A stretch of DNA of 16,738 nucleotides from a virus. The stretch lies in IMG/VR virus record IMGVR_UViG_3300045988_116319; one strand, 5' to 3'. Both the position numbers and the translations under genes were made by a program. The stretch's first letter is position 1. Every line of letters starts with the position of its first letter. The notes under the pieces are model-generated. The model searched no databases and was not told the origin of the DNA. It saw only the letters and a program-made list of their open reading frames with translations. Below are positions 1 to 16,738 of the stretch, piece by piece.

Positions 1-76
1 AAATATAAATATAGTCCGTCCCACGCGGACATTTTCCCAATTTTGTCCGCGTACGGCGGACAGCACAATGCACAAC

Positions 77-111
77 AAAAGCGGTGTCTTTCCCACGCGG
101 ACACCGCTTTT
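77..111 (-). terminator. ITR hairpin, candidate outward-facing intrinsic terminator (mirror copy at 16628-16662 on +)
   Basis: A perfect 12-bp stem aaaagcggtgtc (77-88) / gacaccgctttt (100-111) encloses an 11-nt loop tttcccacgcg. On the minus strand the stem is followed by ttttgttgtg, so it could stop late transcripts running out of the tail-fibre gene towards the left end. On the plus strand only 4 T follow. Confidence 0.45.
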
Positions 112-192
112 GCAAACTATTACATTGCATTTATTCACTTTTCAATACTTTTTCAAACACATAAACCCGAAATTTTTATGCATTTTTCCAAC

Positions 193-221
193 TTGACAAA
201 TACACTTTACCCGACTAAAGT
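193..221 (+). promoter_or_regulatory. Sigma-A-like promoter inside the ITR, pointing inward (mirror copy 16518-16546 on minus strand)
   Basis: TTGACA (193-198), a 17-nt spacer, then TAAAGT (216-221). The right-end copy faces the minus-strand gene array. The left-end copy would run antisense into the tail-fibre gene. Confidence 0.4.
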
Positions 222-472
222 GTTAGTCACGCCTAATTGTCTATACAATTCATCAAATATTCACGGTTTCCGACCGATTCACACACAATTCTTCCGTAAT
301 ACTTACTCATTTTTCCCGGAAAGTGGACAAAACCGCCCGTTTGTCCGCGGGTCGCGGACACATCGGAGACGGGGACTCACTTTAGTCTGCTAAAGTGTCC
401 GCGGGAGACGGACACGGCGCGGCGTGAATATGTGTGTAACTTTTGTTACTTAGTTATTTCATTCATATTTAG

Positions 473-10162: not shown

Positions 10163-11329
10163 CTATTTGTAAAGATCAATCCCCAGCAACTCAACCGCCA
10201 TATTCTTACTGTCCAGATCGTCAAAACGCAAGTATGCTTTCCGGTACGCGTCAACCAGATTTTCAAACAAATAATCATAGTGTTCCAACATAACCGTGTT
10301 TTGGGTGTGGTCGCCATCCCGAAAAACAGCAACAAAATTACAAGACGGGTTATAGTTGTGCGTGATATAGATGTACCCCTCTTCGTAATACTCATATACC
10401 CCATAGCTTTTTCCGCTGTGTTCGATCGTAAACAGATACCGCGACCGTCCGGTCGGCTTCTGGACAAACACACCATCGTCAATCAACATCTGATCCCCGA
10501 CACTCATACTCTGCATATAATGCCCGCCGCGGAATGCTTTCAAAGCGGTGTTCTCCCACATTGCCTTATTTGCGCTGTCATTGTGTGTAAATTCACAAAC
10601 AAACCCACTTCCATGCATCATTTTTGTTTCTTTCTGATATCTCTTATGGATACCAAAAAATACAAAATAAGGATTGAGCAACGAGATATTATTGGATGCC
10701 ATAACTAATTTAAACCATCTGGATTGGCTTCCGTTTCCACGGCTGATCGTCAATAACAACGATTGCAGTTTTTCGGATTCCCCTTTTACGTATTGCCCGC
10801 TTTCCATGCTAAACTCATCAAAAAACAAAAAGTAGATATCCCGAAAATACGGTGACAGCTTTTTTACGCTGTCCATCTTACTTCCAAAACTAAACGCGCA
10901 ACCGAACGGCACACCGTCCAGAAAATAGCGCACGACATTTCCGTTTTTGTCCAGATTTTTATAAGTAACCACACTTCCTAATTTTGGATACATGCTAAGC
11001 ATATCTTCATACATTGCCGCCGCTCCCGTCATTTCCCCTTTTGTACGAAAGATCCATCCGGTCTGCAATCCATACTCTTTGCACAAAATACAACTAGCCG
11101 CGGCGAACGCACTTGTCTTTCCGGCACTACGGTTGGAACATGTAATTGCCACGCCAGCGAAATCCCCGTCCACGTCTGGTTCCGTAAATAGTCGGATCGG
11201 GTTATAATACTCTATCGGATTTCCTTTATCGTCTACCCCCCAAAATTTTACATCATAAGCAGCAAAAAGTTTTTCCCATTGAATATCGTTCCAAAAAATC
11301 ATTGTTTCACGTGAAACATTTTGTTTCAC
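10163..11329 (-). CDS. DNA encapsidation (packaging) ATPase, phi29 gp16-like, 388 aa as tracked
   Basis: Walker A-like CSNRSAGKTSAF and Walker B-like IYFLFFDEF. The size class and presence in a phi29-type gene set fit. The start is uncertain: GTG 11329 lies 1 nt after GGAGGA (too close), and the next in-frame ATG is at 11302 (379 aa). Confidence 0.8.
   Translation of the reverse strand: MKQNVSRETMIFWNDIQWEKLFAAYDVKFWGVDDKGNPIEYYNPIRLFTEPDVDGDFAGVAITCSNRSAGKTSAFAAASCILCKEYGLQTGWIFRTKGEMTGAAAMYEDMLSMYPKLGSVVTYKNLDKNGNVVRYFLDGVPFGCAFSFGSKMDSVKKLSPYFRDIYFLFFDEFSMESGQYVKGESEKLQSLLLTISRGNGSQSRWFKLVMASNNISLLNPYFVFFGIHKRYQKETKMMHGSGFVCEFTHNDSANKAMWENTALKAFRGGHYMQSMSVGDQMLIDDGVFVQKPTGRSRYLFTIEHSGKSYGVYEYYEEGYIYITHNYNPSCNFVAVFRDGDHTQNTVMLEHYDYLFENLVDAYRKAYLRFDDLDSKNMAVELLGIDLYK
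11303..11318. promoter_or_regulatory. parS site 1 (perfect 16-bp ParB/Spo0J consensus palindrome), plus adjacent half-site 11322-11331
   Basis: An exact TGTTTCACGTGAAACA, matching the Bacillus/bacterial parS consensus TGTTNCACGTGAAACA. TGTTTCACGT is repeated 3 nt further on (11322-11331). Confidence 0.75.
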
Positions 11330-11401
11330 GTCCTCCTTTCTATCGTTTTCTAAAACCCCGCTCCGCGTCCCTGCAATTTCCCGCCAGTCTCTCTGCAGGT
11401 A

Positions 11402-11434
11402 ATCTCACGTTTATCGCACGATGATCGCACGTTT
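11402..11434. repeat. Three tandem 11-bp direct repeats (consensus ATCGCACGTTT)
   Basis: The units are atctcacgttt (11402-11412), atcgcacgatg (11413-11423) and atcgcacgttt (11424-11434). One unit per helical turn, in the non-coding gap upstream of the ATPase gene. Confidence 0.6.
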
Positions 11435-11465
11435 GCTTGCAGTTGGACGGCAGATCTTTGCTGGG

Positions 11466-11500
11466 TATAAAAAGAGCTACGCTGGAAAACGTAGCTCTTT
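11466..11500 (-). terminator. Rho-independent terminator ending the replication-gene transcription unit
   Basis: On the minus strand, the stem gagctacg (with loop ttttccag) pairs with cgtagctc and is followed by tttttat. The stem extends to 11 bp with A-U pairs (11471-11481 / 11490-11500). Located 113 nt downstream of the SSB-like gene stop. Confidence 0.75.
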
Positions 11501-11612
11501 CACACGTATGGAGTTTTCAAATACACAAGATATAGTAACAATCAACTACAGGTAACTTATCATACTCATAGGTACATTCCACCATTCGGAGTGCGTATTG
11601 CCGTCCTATGGA

Positions 11613-12032
11613 TTAAGCGAACGGGTTATACTTTTCTGTATCCCCGAACTTGTGAACGTTTACCGCGGAAAGGTAAGCGGTAAATCCCTTGTCACGGCGG
11701 AATTTGCTTTCGCCGATCGTGATGAAGAGGTCGACTACTGCGCCTTTGCCGAGTTCGTTGACACTGGAAACTACGTCGCTCTCCATACCGTCCTCATAAA
11801 AGTTAACGTGGTAATTGGTAATCGCTTTCACGTAAAGTCCAGATTCGTAACTTTCTTTCGCAGGAATCCACTTTGCTTCTGCAGCGGCATCCTCTCCGAA
11901 CGTCTCTATAATTTCTGCGAAAATTGCTTTCTGCTGATCTGCTGTGATCAAAGCAGAAAGAACGCTTTTGCCGTCCTCCTCTTTTGCGTATTTTACGGTA
12001 ACGTTCATAAGTTTCATTCTAGCTTTGTTCAT
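11613..12032 (-). CDS. Candidate ssDNA-binding protein (T7 gp2.5 / DUF2815-like), 139 aa
   Basis: Strong SD aaaaaggagaaaaatcATG. The sequence pattern (N-terminal beta strand MNVTVKYAK, helical QQKAIFAEIIETF, and C-terminal GKGAVVDLFITIGES...GFTAYLSAVNVHKF) resembles my recollection of DUF2815 SSBs. Lies in the replication module. Homology is not verified. Confidence 0.45.
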   Translation of the reverse strand: MNKARMKLMNVTVKYAKEEDGKSVLSALITADQQKAIFAEIIETFGEDAAAEAKWIPAKESYESGLYVKAITNYHVNFYEDGMESDVVSSVNELGKGAVVDLFITIGESKFRRDKGFTAYLSAVNVHKFGDTEKYNPFA

Positions 12033-12585: not shown

Positions 12586-14754
12586 CTATTCTGGTAAAAC
12601 TCCGTCTTGAGAGTTTAACAATACTTCGTAGTATTCATTCGTTACACCTAAAGTATAAGTGGTATCAAGGATTCCAATGTTACTAGCCGTTAAAATTTCT
12701 TCCCCGTTTACTTTGATGTAATGGGGTTTCGAGTTGTTAAAGCAACTGATTGTCCGTCCGACATTTTCCATCCGGCGGCAAAGCCGGAAATTATTACAGC
12801 ATTTTAAGTTTTCCGCGCCAAGTTTCTTATTCATTCCAGCGACCGTAGACGTAAAACGCACGGGATCTTTGCCAGATTGTGTTGCTTTTTCGTCCCATTC
12901 CACGCCGCAGTATTTTTTCGCGCCAAGGGTTTTAAACTGAAAATAGAGGTCATCCATATCCCAAACGCCGAGAATGTAACGGTTCTCTCCAACGTCACAA
13001 AACGCCGGAATGTCGTTTTCGATTGCACGTTTGGCAAGTATTTTGTTTTTAGCTTCAAATTCCGGAATGTGTATATCCGGACGCAGAAATTTGATACTGT
13101 CAGTATCGCAGTACACAACATCCATTCCAACCACGTCAAGCATATCTTGTAACTGTTTTCTTGCGTGAGCAGTAACATAGATTCCCCATTGATAGTGCAA
13201 AAAGCTGTTTTTTCCATCATAGTACGTGTTCAGTGCTTTTTCCGCATCTGCTTTTTCCCGATGCCATTCACCCGTAACAGCATCCATTGCCCATTCGTCT
13301 TGCAACAGATCGGTTACGCACATCCCGAATGTACTGTTTAACTTATTTTTAGACTTCATGTATTCGTACACTTTATCGGGGTTTCCTTTCAACTTGCTCT
13401 TTGCGATAAAAAATGACATCATCGTTTTCCGCATACTATCCGGTAACTTTCCGCGCGCGGCTACGTAGCATTCTGACACGGTAAAGAAATCATAGTCATA
13501 TTGATTTTTTATAATCGACAAGTCAATTTCCGTCATTGCTATTTCACAGCAATTCATAGACAATACGCGTCCATTATCAATCACACAATCTTTCCCGTAC
13601 TTCTGACACTTTGACATCGGGATATAAGGGACGGGGATGTTTTCTTTGATACGCAAGTTGTCAAATTGTACCCGCATAATAACACAGCTGGTAGCACACA
13701 AGTTGTCAAACTGTTCCTGCGTTGTGATCTCAACCGCCCGGAACGCACTCATTGGATAATACTCCGTTGCGATCTGCGCCGGATAACTACTCGAGATATC
13801 CATACTACTCATAACGATCGCAGATTCACCTTTTTTCGCCGTGATCGTGTGACCAGCGTGGATGCGGTTAGCGTGCGTATTACCGCCGCGGAACGCATCT
13901 TTGCAGAGTTGGTATTGTGGTAACGTTAAAGCCAGATCGGCAAATACTCCCGGATAATAACCGCTATCTGCCTGCATGGCGCGGCGAAATTCGCGGCGGA
14001 CGTAGCCAGTAGAGGTAAGGGGGATTTCTGCAAGGTTGTCATCTTTTCGTAAGGCGCGGATGCATTCGCACAAACCGCGAACATCATTGTAGCAATATCC
14101 CTGTTCAACGTCCGTTAAAGGTGTTTTTGGTGTACGTAGTTTTTTATAGTCATACGTATCAACCAGTTTATAGTGGGTTACGCCCTCACTGTTTTCACAA
14201 AATTTTGAAAGACTCATGTTGCTTAAAAAATACGAGCATCGAAACTCAATCCCGTATTTATACGCATAACATTTCATAACTTTATGTGCATCCCGCGCAA
14301 AGATTTCATCTAATTCTATGAAATCTTTCATGAACTGAAATTCATACGACAGATTGTGAACGTAGACTACAGCGCGTTTCGTATCAGAAGTGTTCAAATA
14401 CAAATGTAAACCCTCACAGAAAGTAAGAAATTCATTCCAGTTACGTCCGAAACATACAGTATCTTTCAAACAGAACTGCCAGTGGTACATGAAAGCTTCA
14501 CCTTTTACTACTTTTACCCCTGTTTTGTTATAGCGTTCATAATCGAGTTTTTCCAACGTAGTTGTTTCGATGTCAAACGCCATTTCCACGTCATAATAGA
14601 TGATAGGTTTTTTCTTTCTTCCGCGTTTGCGGCATTCTCGCAACGTCTGGTAATCTGAAAAAGGAAAGTCTACAACGGAATATACTGTTTCACGTGAAAC
14701 ATCTTCGATTCCGTTTATGATAACAGGAACATTTAATTCATACATGATATACAC
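12586..14754 (-). CDS. Family-B, protein-primed DNA polymerase (phi29 gp2-like), 722 aa
   Basis: Exo I is FDIETT, Exo II is HNLSYEFQF and Exo III is YCYNDVRGL. Motif A is MDISSSYPAQ, motif B is KLNSTFGMC and motif C is YCDTDSIKF. The KxY motif is LGAKKYCG. Start is GTG 14754 (tracked) or ATG 14745. Confidence 0.93.
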   Translation of the reverse strand: MYIMYELNVPVIINGIEDVSRETVYSVVDFPFSDYQTLRECRKRGRKKKPIIYYDVEMAFDIETTTLEKLDYERYNKTGVKVVKGEAFMYHWQFCLKDTVCFGRNWNEFLTFCEGLHLYLNTSDTKRAVVYVHNLSYEFQFMKDFIELDEIFARDAHKVMKCYAYKYGIEFRCSYFLSNMSLSKFCENSEGVTHYKLVDTYDYKKLRTPKTPLTDVEQGYCYNDVRGLCECIRALRKDDNLAEIPLTSTGYVRREFRRAMQADSGYYPGVFADLALTLPQYQLCKDAFRGGNTHANRIHAGHTITAKKGESAIVMSSMDISSSYPAQIATEYYPMSAFRAVEITTQEQFDNLCATSCVIMRVQFDNLRIKENIPVPYIPMSKCQKYGKDCVIDNGRVLSMNCCEIAMTEIDLSIIKNQYDYDFFTVSECYVAARGKLPDSMRKTMMSFFIAKSKLKGNPDKVYEYMKSKNKLNSTFGMCVTDLLQDEWAMDAVTGEWHREKADAEKALNTYYDGKNSFLHYQWGIYVTAHARKQLQDMLDVVGMDVVYCDTDSIKFLRPDIHIPEFEAKNKILAKRAIENDIPAFCDVGENRYILGVWDMDDLYFQFKTLGAKKYCGVEWDEKATQSGKDPVRFTSTVAGMNKKLGAENLKCCNNFRLCRRMENVGRTISCFNNSKPHYIKVNGEEILTASNIGILDTTYTLGVTNEYYEVLLNSQDGVLPE
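14686..14701. promoter_or_regulatory. parS site 2 (perfect 16-bp ParB/Spo0J consensus palindrome)
   Basis: An exact TGTTTCACGTGAAACA within codons 18-23 of the polymerase gene. It encodes VSRET, the same pentapeptide as at site 1 in the long ATPase reading frame. Confidence 0.75.
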
Positions 14755-16049: not shown

Positions 16050-16738
16050 TTACACACATATTCACGCCGCGCCGTGTCCGTCTCCCGGAAAGCTACAGCC
16101 TCCGACTGTCATCGGCAGACAACCGCGGAGCGTTCGCGCAGCGGATGCAAAGCGCCGTGTCCGTCTCCCGGAAAGCTACATCCTCCAGCTGTCATCGGCA
16201 GACAACCGCGGAGCGTTCGCGGAACGGATGCAAAGCGCCGTGTCCTCACCCGCGGAGAGCTACAGCCTCCAGCTGTCATCGACAGACAACCGCGGAGCGG
16301 ATGCGGAGCGGATGCAAAGCGCCGTGTCCGTCACCCGCGGACACTTTAGCAGACTAAAGTGAGTCCCCGTCTCCGATGTGTCCGCGACCCGCGGACAAAC
16401 GGGCGGTTTTGTCCACTTTCCGGGAAAAATGAGTAAGTATTACGGAAGAATTGTGTGTGAATCGGTCGGAAACCGTGAATATTTGATGAATTGTATAGAC
16501 AATTAGGCGTGACTAACACTTTAGTCGGGTAAAGTGTATTTGTCAAGTTGGAAAAATGCATAAAAATTTCGGGTTTATGTGTTTGAAAAAGTATTGAAAA
16601 GTGAATAAATGCAATGTAATAGTTTGCAAAAGCGGTGTCCGCGTGGGAAAGACACCGCTTTTGTTGTGCATTGTGCTGTCCGCCGTACGCGGACAAAATT
16701 GGGAAAATGTCCGCGTGGGACGGACTATATTTATATTT
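16050..16738. repeat. Right inverted terminal repeat (ITR-R), 689 bp including a 250-bp tandem-repeat expansion
   Basis: 16319-16738 is the reverse complement of 1-420 (one mismatch). 16050-16087 is the reverse complement of 402-439. The intervening sequence is the tandem array, which is absent from ITR-L. Confidence 0.95.
16069..16341. repeat. Tandem direct repeats, 3 full units (83, 83, 84 bp) plus a partial fourth
   Basis: Units start with gcgccgtgtcc at 16069, 16152, 16235 and 16319. Units 1 and 2 are near-identical. Unit 3 diverges at both ends (gtcctcacccgcggagagc, and ggagcggatgcggagcggatgc). The left ITR has only the single junction copy. Confidence 0.9.

Follow-up and report, generated by a model that had tools for sequence, protein, structure and literature searches.

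Why would a small lytic phage that encodes no ParB carry perfect copies of parS, the chromosomal site bound by bacterial ParB/Spo0J? The question is raised by two identical 16-mers in the genome of IMG/VR virus record IMGVR_UViG_3300045988_116319, a DNA stretch of 16,738 nt that is referred to as a whole as the window. The window ends in 420-bp terminal inverted repeats and is therefore considered the complete linear 16.7-kb genome of a phi29-like podovirus, with all of its genes located on the minus strand. Pfam matches were obtained for the Gp16 ATPase, connector, tail knob and Phi29_MCP, and PHROGs matches for the DNA polymerase and lower collar; this gene set and the terminal inverted repeats are those of a phi29-like podovirus with protein-primed replication. 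The DNA polymerase exhibits 45.6% identity to the polymerase of Clostridium phage HM2, the nearest relative in culture. No lysogeny genes were seen in the window, and the phage is of the strictly lytic type. Several small ORFs in the window are without annotation, and an Rfam scan of the window (E ≤ 1) identified no pRNA and no other credible RNA family. No GenBank phage was matched by the whole window in megablast, and no relative of the major capsid protein was found among 185,579 species genomes. Alignment of the endolysin provided three lysins only (36–39% identity), all from Oscillospiraceae/Clostridia MAGs and too weak to name the host, which is probably a clostridial gut bacterium. The features discussed below are listed in Table 1.

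Table 1. Positions of the parS sites and associated features in the window.
Feature	Position	Strand	Description
Left terminal inverted repeat	1..420		420 nt, 100% complementary to 16319-16738
Packaging ATPase (Gp16 family)	10163..11302	-	PF05894, E = 3.6e-26; start revised to ATG 11302
parS-1	11303..11318		Exact TGTTTCACGTGAAACA; in the 5'UTR of the packaging-ATPase gene, abutting the ATG
Predicted 10-bp RNA hairpin	11309..11331	-	ACGUGAAACA-AAA-UGUUUCACGU; half-site and parS-1 left half as arms
Half-site	11322..11331		TGTTTCACGT (minus strand ACGTGAAACA); 5' arm of the predicted mRNA hairpin
Shine-Dalgarno sequence of the ATPase gene	11332..11341	-	AGAAAGGAGG; near-invariant among relatives
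Protein-primed family-B DNA polymerase	12586..14745	-	719 aa; phrog_1907, E = 5.5e-51
parS-2	14686..14701		Exact TGTTTCACGTGAAACA; in the DNA polymerase gene, last base of codon 15 and codons 16-20 (V-S-R-E-T)
Right terminal inverted repeat	16319..16738		Pairs with 1..420

A consensus for chromosomal parS was reportedly given by Livny et al. in 2007. Both copies of TGTTTCACGTGAAACA satisfy the 16-bp palindromic consensus TGTTNCACGTGAAACA and represent the idealised chromosomal parS, a form that has been published as such (PMC7383237) and whose consensus was also used to locate parS in gut Clostridia (PMC10197239). The palindrome is identical to the chromosomal parS of Bacillota and most other bacteria (PMC7383237, PMC10197239); unlike chromosomal parS, it resides on a 16.7-kb viral genome with no origin cluster and no adjacent parAB operon. 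Exact copies are expected 3.9e-6 times per genome analytically (5.7e-6 when composition is considered), and the probability of two or more is approximately 8e-12. Apart from the two exact copies, the window contains no site within three mismatches of TGTTTCACGTGAAACA; at the same threshold, shuffled sequence gave a mean of 0.12 matches, and none of 200 shuffles reached two. The distances of the two copies to the right end of the genome are 2.0 and 5.4 kb. Repeat analysis of the window showed that their similarity is confined to the palindrome, with no repeated DNA beyond it, and an origin by segmental duplication was ruled out because the likeness ends there.

No ORF in the window exhibited a Pfam or PHROGs match to ParA or ParB, and each ORF of a size possible for ParB has been assigned a structural or replication role or position. 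A parABS cassette of the plasmid or prophage kind, with parA and parB beside their own parS, was likewise not found in the window. Such cassettes are carried by the plasmid-prophages P1 and N15 and by extrachromosomal mycobacteriophages (PMC7157519). The present phage resembles these in having centromere-like segregation sites on a phage genome; unlike these temperate phages, which encode their own ParA/ParB and carry cognate sites, it has no par genes and its sites are of host specificity. The initial annotation had reported the two exact copies, a chance expectation of about 4e-6, identity with the chromosomal consensus and the lack of a phage ParA or ParB, all of which agree with the results given here.

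Conservation was assessed in close relatives of the phage. At least one exact parS is present in 64 of the 80 relatives and none in the remaining 16; with up to one mismatch allowed, at least one site is found in 75, the two positions being unchanged. Altogether, 1.03 Mb of close-relative sequence contains 128 parS sites, where roughly 0.01 per Mb would be expected (49 / 4^16, from the 49 sequences that differ from parS by no more than one base). parS-1 is exact in 57 of 79 aligned genomes. The commonest 16-mer at parS-1 is shared by 72% of the genomes compared to a gene median of 36%, and that at parS-2 by 62% compared to a median of 35%, a value equalled by 5 of the 300 windows within the first 300 nt. 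Third-codon-position conservation is 0.92 within parS-2 (gene mean 0.70) and 0.95 within the other site (gene mean 0.72), placing both in the top 4% of five-codon windows by this measure, and the 16-mers rank in the top 7–8% of their genes, which is good but not extreme. Point changes in the DNA polymerase site are mostly non-synonymous, and one subclade encodes TTAIET for VSRET and is without parS at this position. The VSRET peptide is, as far as the alignment indicates, dispensable in the DNA polymerase. The parS sequence appears, with moderate confidence, to be held by selection at the DNA level; the sites themselves are dispensable to judge from the 16 relatives without an exact copy and the 11 of 79 without parS-1. 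Free synonymous divergence of the VSRET-coding sequence, which the initial annotation had named as evidence against such selection, was not seen in some 80 relatives, where the synonymous positions of the sites outconserve most of the gene. Of the parS positions that it had proposed to survey in related phages, at least one is occupied in the 75 relatives counted above.

The setting of parS-1 differs from the first description of this locus. parS-1 separates the Shine-Dalgarno sequence of the ATPase gene from the ATG (11302-11300, minus strand), and this ATG is assigned as the start because relatives have 1–2 nt indels between an upstream GTG (11329) and the ATG. Initiation at GTG 11329 was ruled out by these frame-breaking indels and by the gap of only 2 nt that it would leave after the Shine-Dalgarno sequence. 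parS-1 had been placed within the coding sequence, and the indels put it in the 5'UTR instead; by the same token, VSRET is encoded by the DNA polymerase copy (codons 16–20 of 719) and not by the ATPase copy. The half-site next to parS-1 is present as reported and is a direct repeat of the parS-1 right half. Rather than an extra ParB site, it would be one arm of a predicted mRNA hairpin whose other arm is the parS-1 left half. The hairpin has a minimum free energy of -12.2 kcal/mol and a z-score of -2.5. Its loop varies among relatives from AAA to AAAAA, and the 8 bp at the core of the stem are retained; because the 3' arm is part of the fixed parS, no compensatory changes could show up. A plus-strand terminator called at 11309-11331 is the same stem and was rejected as a terminator, every gene being on the minus strand.

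With this hairpin folded, the Shine-Dalgarno sequence and the ATG, which are 29 nt apart, would be separated by an effective distance of about 6 nt. parS-1 would be folded away from the gap, and the ATPase would still be translated; the odds that the hairpin serves such a compensating role are judged to be even. Hairpin-bridged pairs of Shine-Dalgarno sequence and start codon exist, for example in T4 gene 38. The 29-nt gap with a stable predicted hairpin is of this type, and it differs in that the hairpin is built from a DNA protein-binding site and a duplicated half-site and has a putative function. In 11 of the 79 relatives, a deletion of approximately 21 nt between two ACGTGAAAC repeats leaves only SD-ACGTGAAACA-ATG, with normal spacing from Shine-Dalgarno sequence to ATG. 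The deletion recurs across scattered lineages, and parS-1 persists in most genomes. A triple repeat resembling CGTGCGAT is also found upstream of the ATPase gene and is not enriched elsewhere in the window.

Beyond the close relatives, at least 27 IMG/VR contigs among the 120 exact-16-mer matches listed are phi29-like, three of these being close relatives. The remaining phi29-like contigs among the matches listed are 20–45% identical to the proteins of the window and carry one to four parS sites each at non-homologous, mostly intergenic positions, often as pairs 25–34 nt apart. In many of these distant phages among the matches listed, parS is immediately 5' of a Shine-Dalgarno sequence; sites fall near Shine-Dalgarno sequences because intergenic spacers are short in compact genomes. 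parS is present in 10 of 17 cultured phages of endospore formers (phi29, Nf, HM2, CH17P1, CS229P1, CI55P1, CI130P1, phiCPV4, CPQ7 and Harambe), absent from the other seven, and present in none of 10 phages of non-sporeformers, with the sporulation status of hosts taken from general knowledge. The Fisher p value for this set is 0.003, or 0.007–0.019 at one phage per lineage, with kinship otherwise ignored. The parS-bearing cultured relatives all infect sporeformers, Amedibacillus being uncertain in this respect. Among the Bacillus phages scanned, phi29 has four one-mismatch sites, Nf has two and GA-1 has none. In the Hungatella-phage clade, parS occurs in 28 of 30 members, and in the Bifidobacterium-phage clade in none of 80 contigs. 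parS recurs across phi29-like clades and is restricted to some of them. The tie to sporulating hosts that had been suspected from the window is backed by both the cultured-phage and the clade comparisons.

The best overall reading, and a fairly probable one, is that the parS sites are host ParB/Spo0J sites used as in phi29. That phage reportedly has five parS sites, and Spo0J helps to carry its genome into the prespore; the parS sites of phi29 and of Nf are targets of host Spo0J (Meijer et al. 2005, via PMC2731898). The precedent invoked by the initial annotation is supported by this source and by the four one-mismatch sites found in the scan. ParB and the parS consensus are near-universal in Bacillota, gut Clostridia included (PMC10197239), and it is very likely that the two candidate sites would be bound by the ParB of the host. 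Consensus identity, the absence of phage par genes and conservation in relatives are consistent with the proposed recruitment of host ParB.

The phage is a further member of the known phi29-type parS carriers. As in phi29 and Nf, a phi29-like podovirus with protein-primed replication has host-type parS and no phage ParB, which is the arrangement of the phi29 strategy; as in phi29, a site lies near the ATPase gene, one phi29 site being directly 3' of its ATPase gene. Unlike phi29, which has TGTTTCACGTGGAACA sites, the phage has two sites of exact idealised consensus, one of which is placed between a Shine-Dalgarno sequence and a start codon with a putative compensating hairpin. It also differs in its one-strand gene layout, its 420-bp inverted terminal repeats and the lack of Spo0A-box enrichment. 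In the phi29 strategy, the lytic cycle is suppressed through Spo0A boxes at the early and late promoters; a scan of the window for the consensus box gave no sign of them: TGTCGAA occurs once in the window compared to 3.3 expected and TGNCGAA nine times compared to 11.9, and the intergenic promoter region (11342-11612) contains none. Under the phi29-type reading, infection would be followed by nucleation of host ParB/Spo0J dimers at the two parS sites and by their spreading along the 16.7-kb linear phage DNA. As part of the ParB/origin segregation complex, the phage genome would then be taken along with the origin region to the forespore or a daughter cell and so escape loss. That such carriage into spores or daughter cells is the benefit of the sites is put at an equal chance of being right or wrong.

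A different benefit, regarded as unlikely, would be that of a ParB sponge. The sites would again be real ParB sites, and hundreds of replicating phage genomes with high-affinity sites would titrate ParB/Spo0J off the host origin, freeing Soj/ParA, blocking entry into sporulation and disturbing segregation, so that the cell is kept as a productive lytic host. The effect on sporulation is argued by analogy with spo0J mutants of B. subtilis. Titration also predicts perfect-consensus sites, multiple or paired sites and a restriction to phages of sporeformers, and it fits the absence of the Spo0A boxes needed for a pause of the lytic cycle. One or two sites per genome are a modest sink, however, and the role reported for Spo0J in phi29 is prespore carriage (PMC2731898).

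Other uses of ParB are more improbable still. ParB could recruit SMC-ScpAB, which would compact phage genomes or keep them individual, or its clamps could coat the DNA and shield it from host nucleases; as a variant, late-gene expression might be damped by ParB at parS-1, a site downstream of the late promoter. In Bacillota, SMC is loaded at ParB-parS (PMC4536313). A terminator-like hairpin precedes parS-1, which belongs to the leader of the ATPase/late operon. ParB-parS-SMC is also employed by Staphylococcus, Streptococcus, Bifidobacterium and Actinobacteria, yet parS was found in none of 10 cultured phages and none of 80 contigs from such hosts, which argues against a generic SMC or protective role.

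An element acting at the RNA level, in which the palindrome forms an mRNA hairpin that controls the downstream gene through translation or stability and resembles parS incidentally, has very little probability. It draws on the minimum-free-energy hairpin of parS-1 and the half-site in the gap from Shine-Dalgarno sequence to ATG, and on the sites immediately 5' of Shine-Dalgarno sequences in many of the distant phages listed. Against it, parS is one of 65,536 possible 16-nt palindromes and is nevertheless shared exactly by distant clades, so that the conserved thing is the sequence itself. An ORF location without any half-site partner is seen for parS-2 and for several sites in other phages, shuffled sequence folds as well as the surroundings of parS-2 do (z = -0.73), and relatives that lack parS-1 retain the normal spacing noted above. 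An operator for a phage-encoded regulator, or a functionless chance or hitch-hiking sequence, is the least credible explanation, for despite the unannotated small ORFs and the loss of sites in some relatives, the identical 16-mer occurs in phages with 20–45% protein identity and differing small ORFs, equals the host consensus at an expected ~4e-6 per genome, and is accompanied by no repeated DNA past the palindrome.

The spore ride of phi29 via Spo0J/parS has so far been treated as a Bacillus-specific curiosity, and the comparative data point to something broader. The highest-affinity form of parS appears to be common in uncultured phi29-like phages of the human gut. parS occurs likewise in phages of Clostridium perfringens, C. 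innocuum, Hungatella and C. symbiosum, and is absent in the sampled phages of non-sporeformers. It is conceivable, though rather doubtful, that hijacking through perfect-consensus parS is a clade-wide and repeatedly re-invented trait of strictly lytic phi29-like phages of endospore-forming gut Clostridia. In that case, bacterial spores would serve many "virulent" gut phages as a means of persisting and of passing from one human host to another; alternatively, such phages would use parS as a ParB sponge and stop host sporulation. Should the sites function as expected, the hitch-hiking of lytic gut phages in endospores is directly testable, and several parS-bearing phages already have cultured hosts. 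The outcome matters for how phages persist, for their transmission together with spore-forming commensals and pathogens, and for phage therapy against C. perfringens.

The closest parallels among cultured phages are clostridial. Like the phage described here, phiCPV4, CPQ7, CI55P1, CI130P1, CH17P1, CS229P1 and HM2 are phi29-like and carry exact consensus parS. With up to one mismatch, seven sites are found in each of the C. perfringens phages phiCPV4 and CPQ7 and one in each of the other five; the paper describing phiCPV4 does not mention parS sites. Unlike those of the window, the sites of these clostridial phages are at non-homologous positions, and in phiCPV4 they form intergenic pairs 25 nt apart.

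Two exact copies of the palindrome TGTTTCACGTGAAACA, parS-1 and parS-2, are located in the window, and a whole-window scan identified no further match, even at up to three mismatches. Both copies had been reported in the initial annotation. Its chance expectation of about 4e-6 agrees with the computed 4-6e-6 exact copies per genome; the probability of two or more is approximately 8e-12, and chance is an unlikely explanation. The sequence is the idealised parS as published, TGTTTCAC-GTGAAACA (PMC7383237), and parS in gut Bacillota, among them C. innocuum and Enterocloster, has been located with the same string (PMC10197239). The two sites are very probably functional ParB sites.

Coordinates of the parS sites and other features of the window
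Feature	Position	Strand	Description
Inverted terminal repeats	1-420, 16319-16738		420 bp, perfect; repeat analysis
parS-1	11303-11318		exact copy
Half-site	11322-11331		TGTTTCACGT
ATPase leader	11342-11612	minus	270-nt intergenic
CGTG(C/A)GAT repeats	11402-11432		three, closely spaced, in ATPase leader
Terminator-like hairpin	about 11467-11502		14 bp, in ATPase leader
Family-B DNA polymerase	12586-14745	minus	phrog_1907 match
parS-2	14686-14701		polymerase codon 15 last base and codons 16-20 (V-S-R-E-T)
83-nt tandem unit	16069-16318		three copies, just inside right terminal repeat

Both exact sites are present in 40 of the 80 close relatives from IMG/VR and one exact site in a further 24, with at least one site at up to one mismatch in 75. 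Free synonymous divergence within the sites, raised in the initial annotation as evidence against selection on the palindrome, is not observed, and conservation is above the gene mean. Column conservation is 0.92 at parS-2 versus 0.80 in its flanks, and 0.92 versus 0.79 at parS-1. Third-position conservation over five codons is 0.92 at parS-2 (gene mean 0.70), with 28 of 716 five-codon windows equally or more conserved; the parS-1 values, 0.95 versus 0.72 and 17 of 385 windows, use the rejected upstream GTG frame, and those positions are non-coding. The commonest 16-mer is carried by 62% of genomes at parS-2 (gene median 35%) and 72% at parS-1 (36%), and the 16-nt windows equally or more conserved number 175 of 2145 (5 in the first 300) and 79 of 1152, respectively. 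These values suggest selection at the DNA level, with a signal that is clear but moderate and sites that can be lost.

Most genomes keep the parS-2 16-mer unchanged, while its flanking codons vary freely, both synonymously and non-synonymously. Single changes within the 16-mer are mostly non-synonymous (V to I, R to S, S to L, T to K). A subclade of approximately 11 genomes encodes TTAIET in place of the parS-2 peptide and lacks parS, indicating that the peptide is not required by the polymerase.

On the coding (minus) strand, the order at parS-1 is AGAAAGGAGG-ACGTGAAACA-AAA-TGTTTCACGTGAAACA-ATG, and the GTG start of the listed ATPase ORF falls just 2 nt past the Shine-Dalgarno sequence. Among the 79 aligned relatives, the A-run between the half-site and parS-1 differs by 1-2 nt, which breaks the GTG frame, and ATGATTTTTTGG is invariant; the true ATPase start is thus the ATG at 11302. 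These indels rule out the GTG at 11329; the ATPase is 9 codons too long in the public annotation (388 aa, GTG start) as well as in the mechanically derived list of ORFs. The parS-1 site, initially placed at the 5' end of the gene, therefore lies in the 5'UTR, between the Shine-Dalgarno sequence and the ATPase ATG.

With parS-1 in place, the gap from the Shine-Dalgarno sequence to the ATG is 29 nt. In RNA folding, the half-site pairs with the left half of parS-1 over 10 bp; this hairpin is the minimum-free-energy structure (-12.2 kcal/mol, z = -2.5) and, when folded, would reduce the spacer to 6 nt, GAAACA. The half-site noted in the initial annotation is present, but a role as an additional ParB half-site is less plausible than that of a hairpin arm, and it may represent the cost of lodging parS in a translation-initiation region. 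A deletion of approximately 21 nt between direct repeats ACGTGAAAC in 11 of the 79 genomes (L004, L009, L012, L017, L022, L028, L043, L044, L064, L078, L079) leaves SD-ACGTGAAACA-ATG with ordinary spacing. By the adjacent ATPase gene, the nearest neighbour of nine of these 11 is a parS-bearing genome, so the loss is recurrent or spread by recombination. The site persists in most genomes despite the deletion alleles. The two leader types co-circulate among otherwise very similar genomes, which suggests that slippage at the direct repeats has recurred and that ParB binding may trade off against translation.

The leader upstream is highly conserved among the 79 genomes and, together with its terminator-like hairpin, indicates that parS-1 heads the ATPase/structural operon. 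CTGCA(A)G inverted motifs lie on either side of the CGTG(C/A)GAT repeats. This leader may contain a late promoter, an operator or a packaging RNA; no Rfam match to pRNA was found anywhere in the window.

Sites at up to one mismatch were scanned for in 28 cultured phi29-like genomes. They are present in phi29 (four), Nf (two), Clostridium phage HM2, CH17P1 (Hungatella), CS229P1 (C. symbiosum), CI55P1 and CI130P1 (C. innocuum group), phiCPV4 and CPQ7 (C. perfringens, seven each) and Harambe, in which the mismatch is central. None was found at this threshold in GA-1, SRT01hs, PumA2, DLc1, QCM11, phi24R or CpV1, nor in the ten phages of non-sporeformers (Staphylococcus P68, Streptococcus Cp-1, and Eggerthella, Curtobacterium, Salmonella, Actinomyces, Arthrobacter, Weissella and two Bifidobacterium phages). 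With host sporulation status assigned from general knowledge, parS occurs in 10 of 17 sporeformer phages versus 0 of 10 (Fisher p = 0.003, without phylogenetic correction; p = 0.007-0.019 with one phage per lineage). In IMG/VR, sites occur in 28 of 30 contigs of the CH17P1-like Hungatella-phage clade, and none of the 80 contigs (1.29 Mb) of the Bifidobacterium-phage clade has one. A sister group of gut phi29-like contigs (L264-L313; MCP 58-61% identical to CH17P1) has sites in 3 of 50 and would make a useful natural contrast to the CH17P1-like group. Most of these non-sporeformer hosts also use ParB, parS and SMC, and the absence of parS from their phages argues against generic SMC loading or DNA coating and for a link to sporulation.

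At least 120 IMG/VR contigs carry the exact 16-mer, and among those listed 27 are phi29-like; three of these 27 are close relatives and the remainder share 20-45% protein identity with the window. Among the matches listed, the distant contigs carry 1-4 exact sites each at non-homologous positions, mostly intergenic and often directly 5' of a Shine-Dalgarno sequence (probably because the intergenic spacers are very short), frequently paired 25-34 nt apart, and in some cases within polymerase genes. Exact pairs in gut contigs L086 (6545/6579), L100 (5614/5648), L186 (5687/5721) and L093 (5525/5551) are spaced at a constant 34 nt or 26 nt, and a Shine-Dalgarno-like sequence lies between the two sites or follows them; the spacing may reflect cooperative ParB loading. 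The sites of phiCPV4 (L207; 4812-4853, 7846-7886, 9949, 11824-11864) and CPQ7 (L217) are mostly intergenic pairs 25-26 nt apart, one pair immediately preceding the terminase gene; the seven phiCPV4 sites go unmentioned in the paper on that phage.

The phi29 precedent invoked in the initial annotation is in the literature: the passage of PMC2731898 citing Meijer et al. 2005 describes five parS sites and involvement of Spo0J in genome segregation into the prespore. In the best-supported model, host Spo0J/ParB would likewise act at the phage sites to segregate the genome into the prespore, and the odds that the phage gains by being carried into spores or daughter cells are roughly even. The window shows no enrichment of Spo0A boxes and none occurs in the leader region, which argues against a full phi29-style strategy. 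The main rival, titration of ParB to block sporulation, fits the host pattern equally well. A role in RNA only is unlikely; a hairpin is predicted at parS-1, and the sequence around parS-2 folds no better than its shuffled versions (z = -0.73). A phage-encoded binder is also unlikely. Profile searches of the window ORFs gave no ParA or ParB, as initially annotated, so the sites could work only through the host protein. For phi29 and Nf, the parS principle has been known since 2005. No report was found in the searchable literature that the trait extends over clostridial and uncultured gut phi29-like phages or is missing from relatives that infect non-sporeformers, or that a parS sits between a Shine-Dalgarno sequence and ATG beside a hairpin that would compensate for it.

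The window is a complete linear genome of a phi29-like podovirus (16,738 bp) with all large genes on the minus strand, including, by profile matches, the Gp16 packaging ATPase, two lysins, a Phi29-type major capsid protein (MCP), tail knob, connector, lower collar and a tail protein of 778 aa. GenBank phages searched at the DNA level include no close relative. The nearest cultured relative is HM2 (45.6% polymerase identity), an identical genome was also assembled from a JGI metagenome, and IMG/VR holds more than 160 relatives. At 420 bp, the terminal repeats far exceed those annotated in the records of phi29 (6 bp), C. perfringens phages (25-41 bp) and Cp-1 (236 bp), and hold several GTGTCCGCG...CGCGGACAC-type palindromes and ACACTTTAG...CTAAAGTG inverted motifs. 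Relative to the first copy of the 83-nt unit, the later two show 94% and 75% identity, and the first 19-38 nt of the unit also match the complement of 402-439, at the inner edge of the left terminal repeat.
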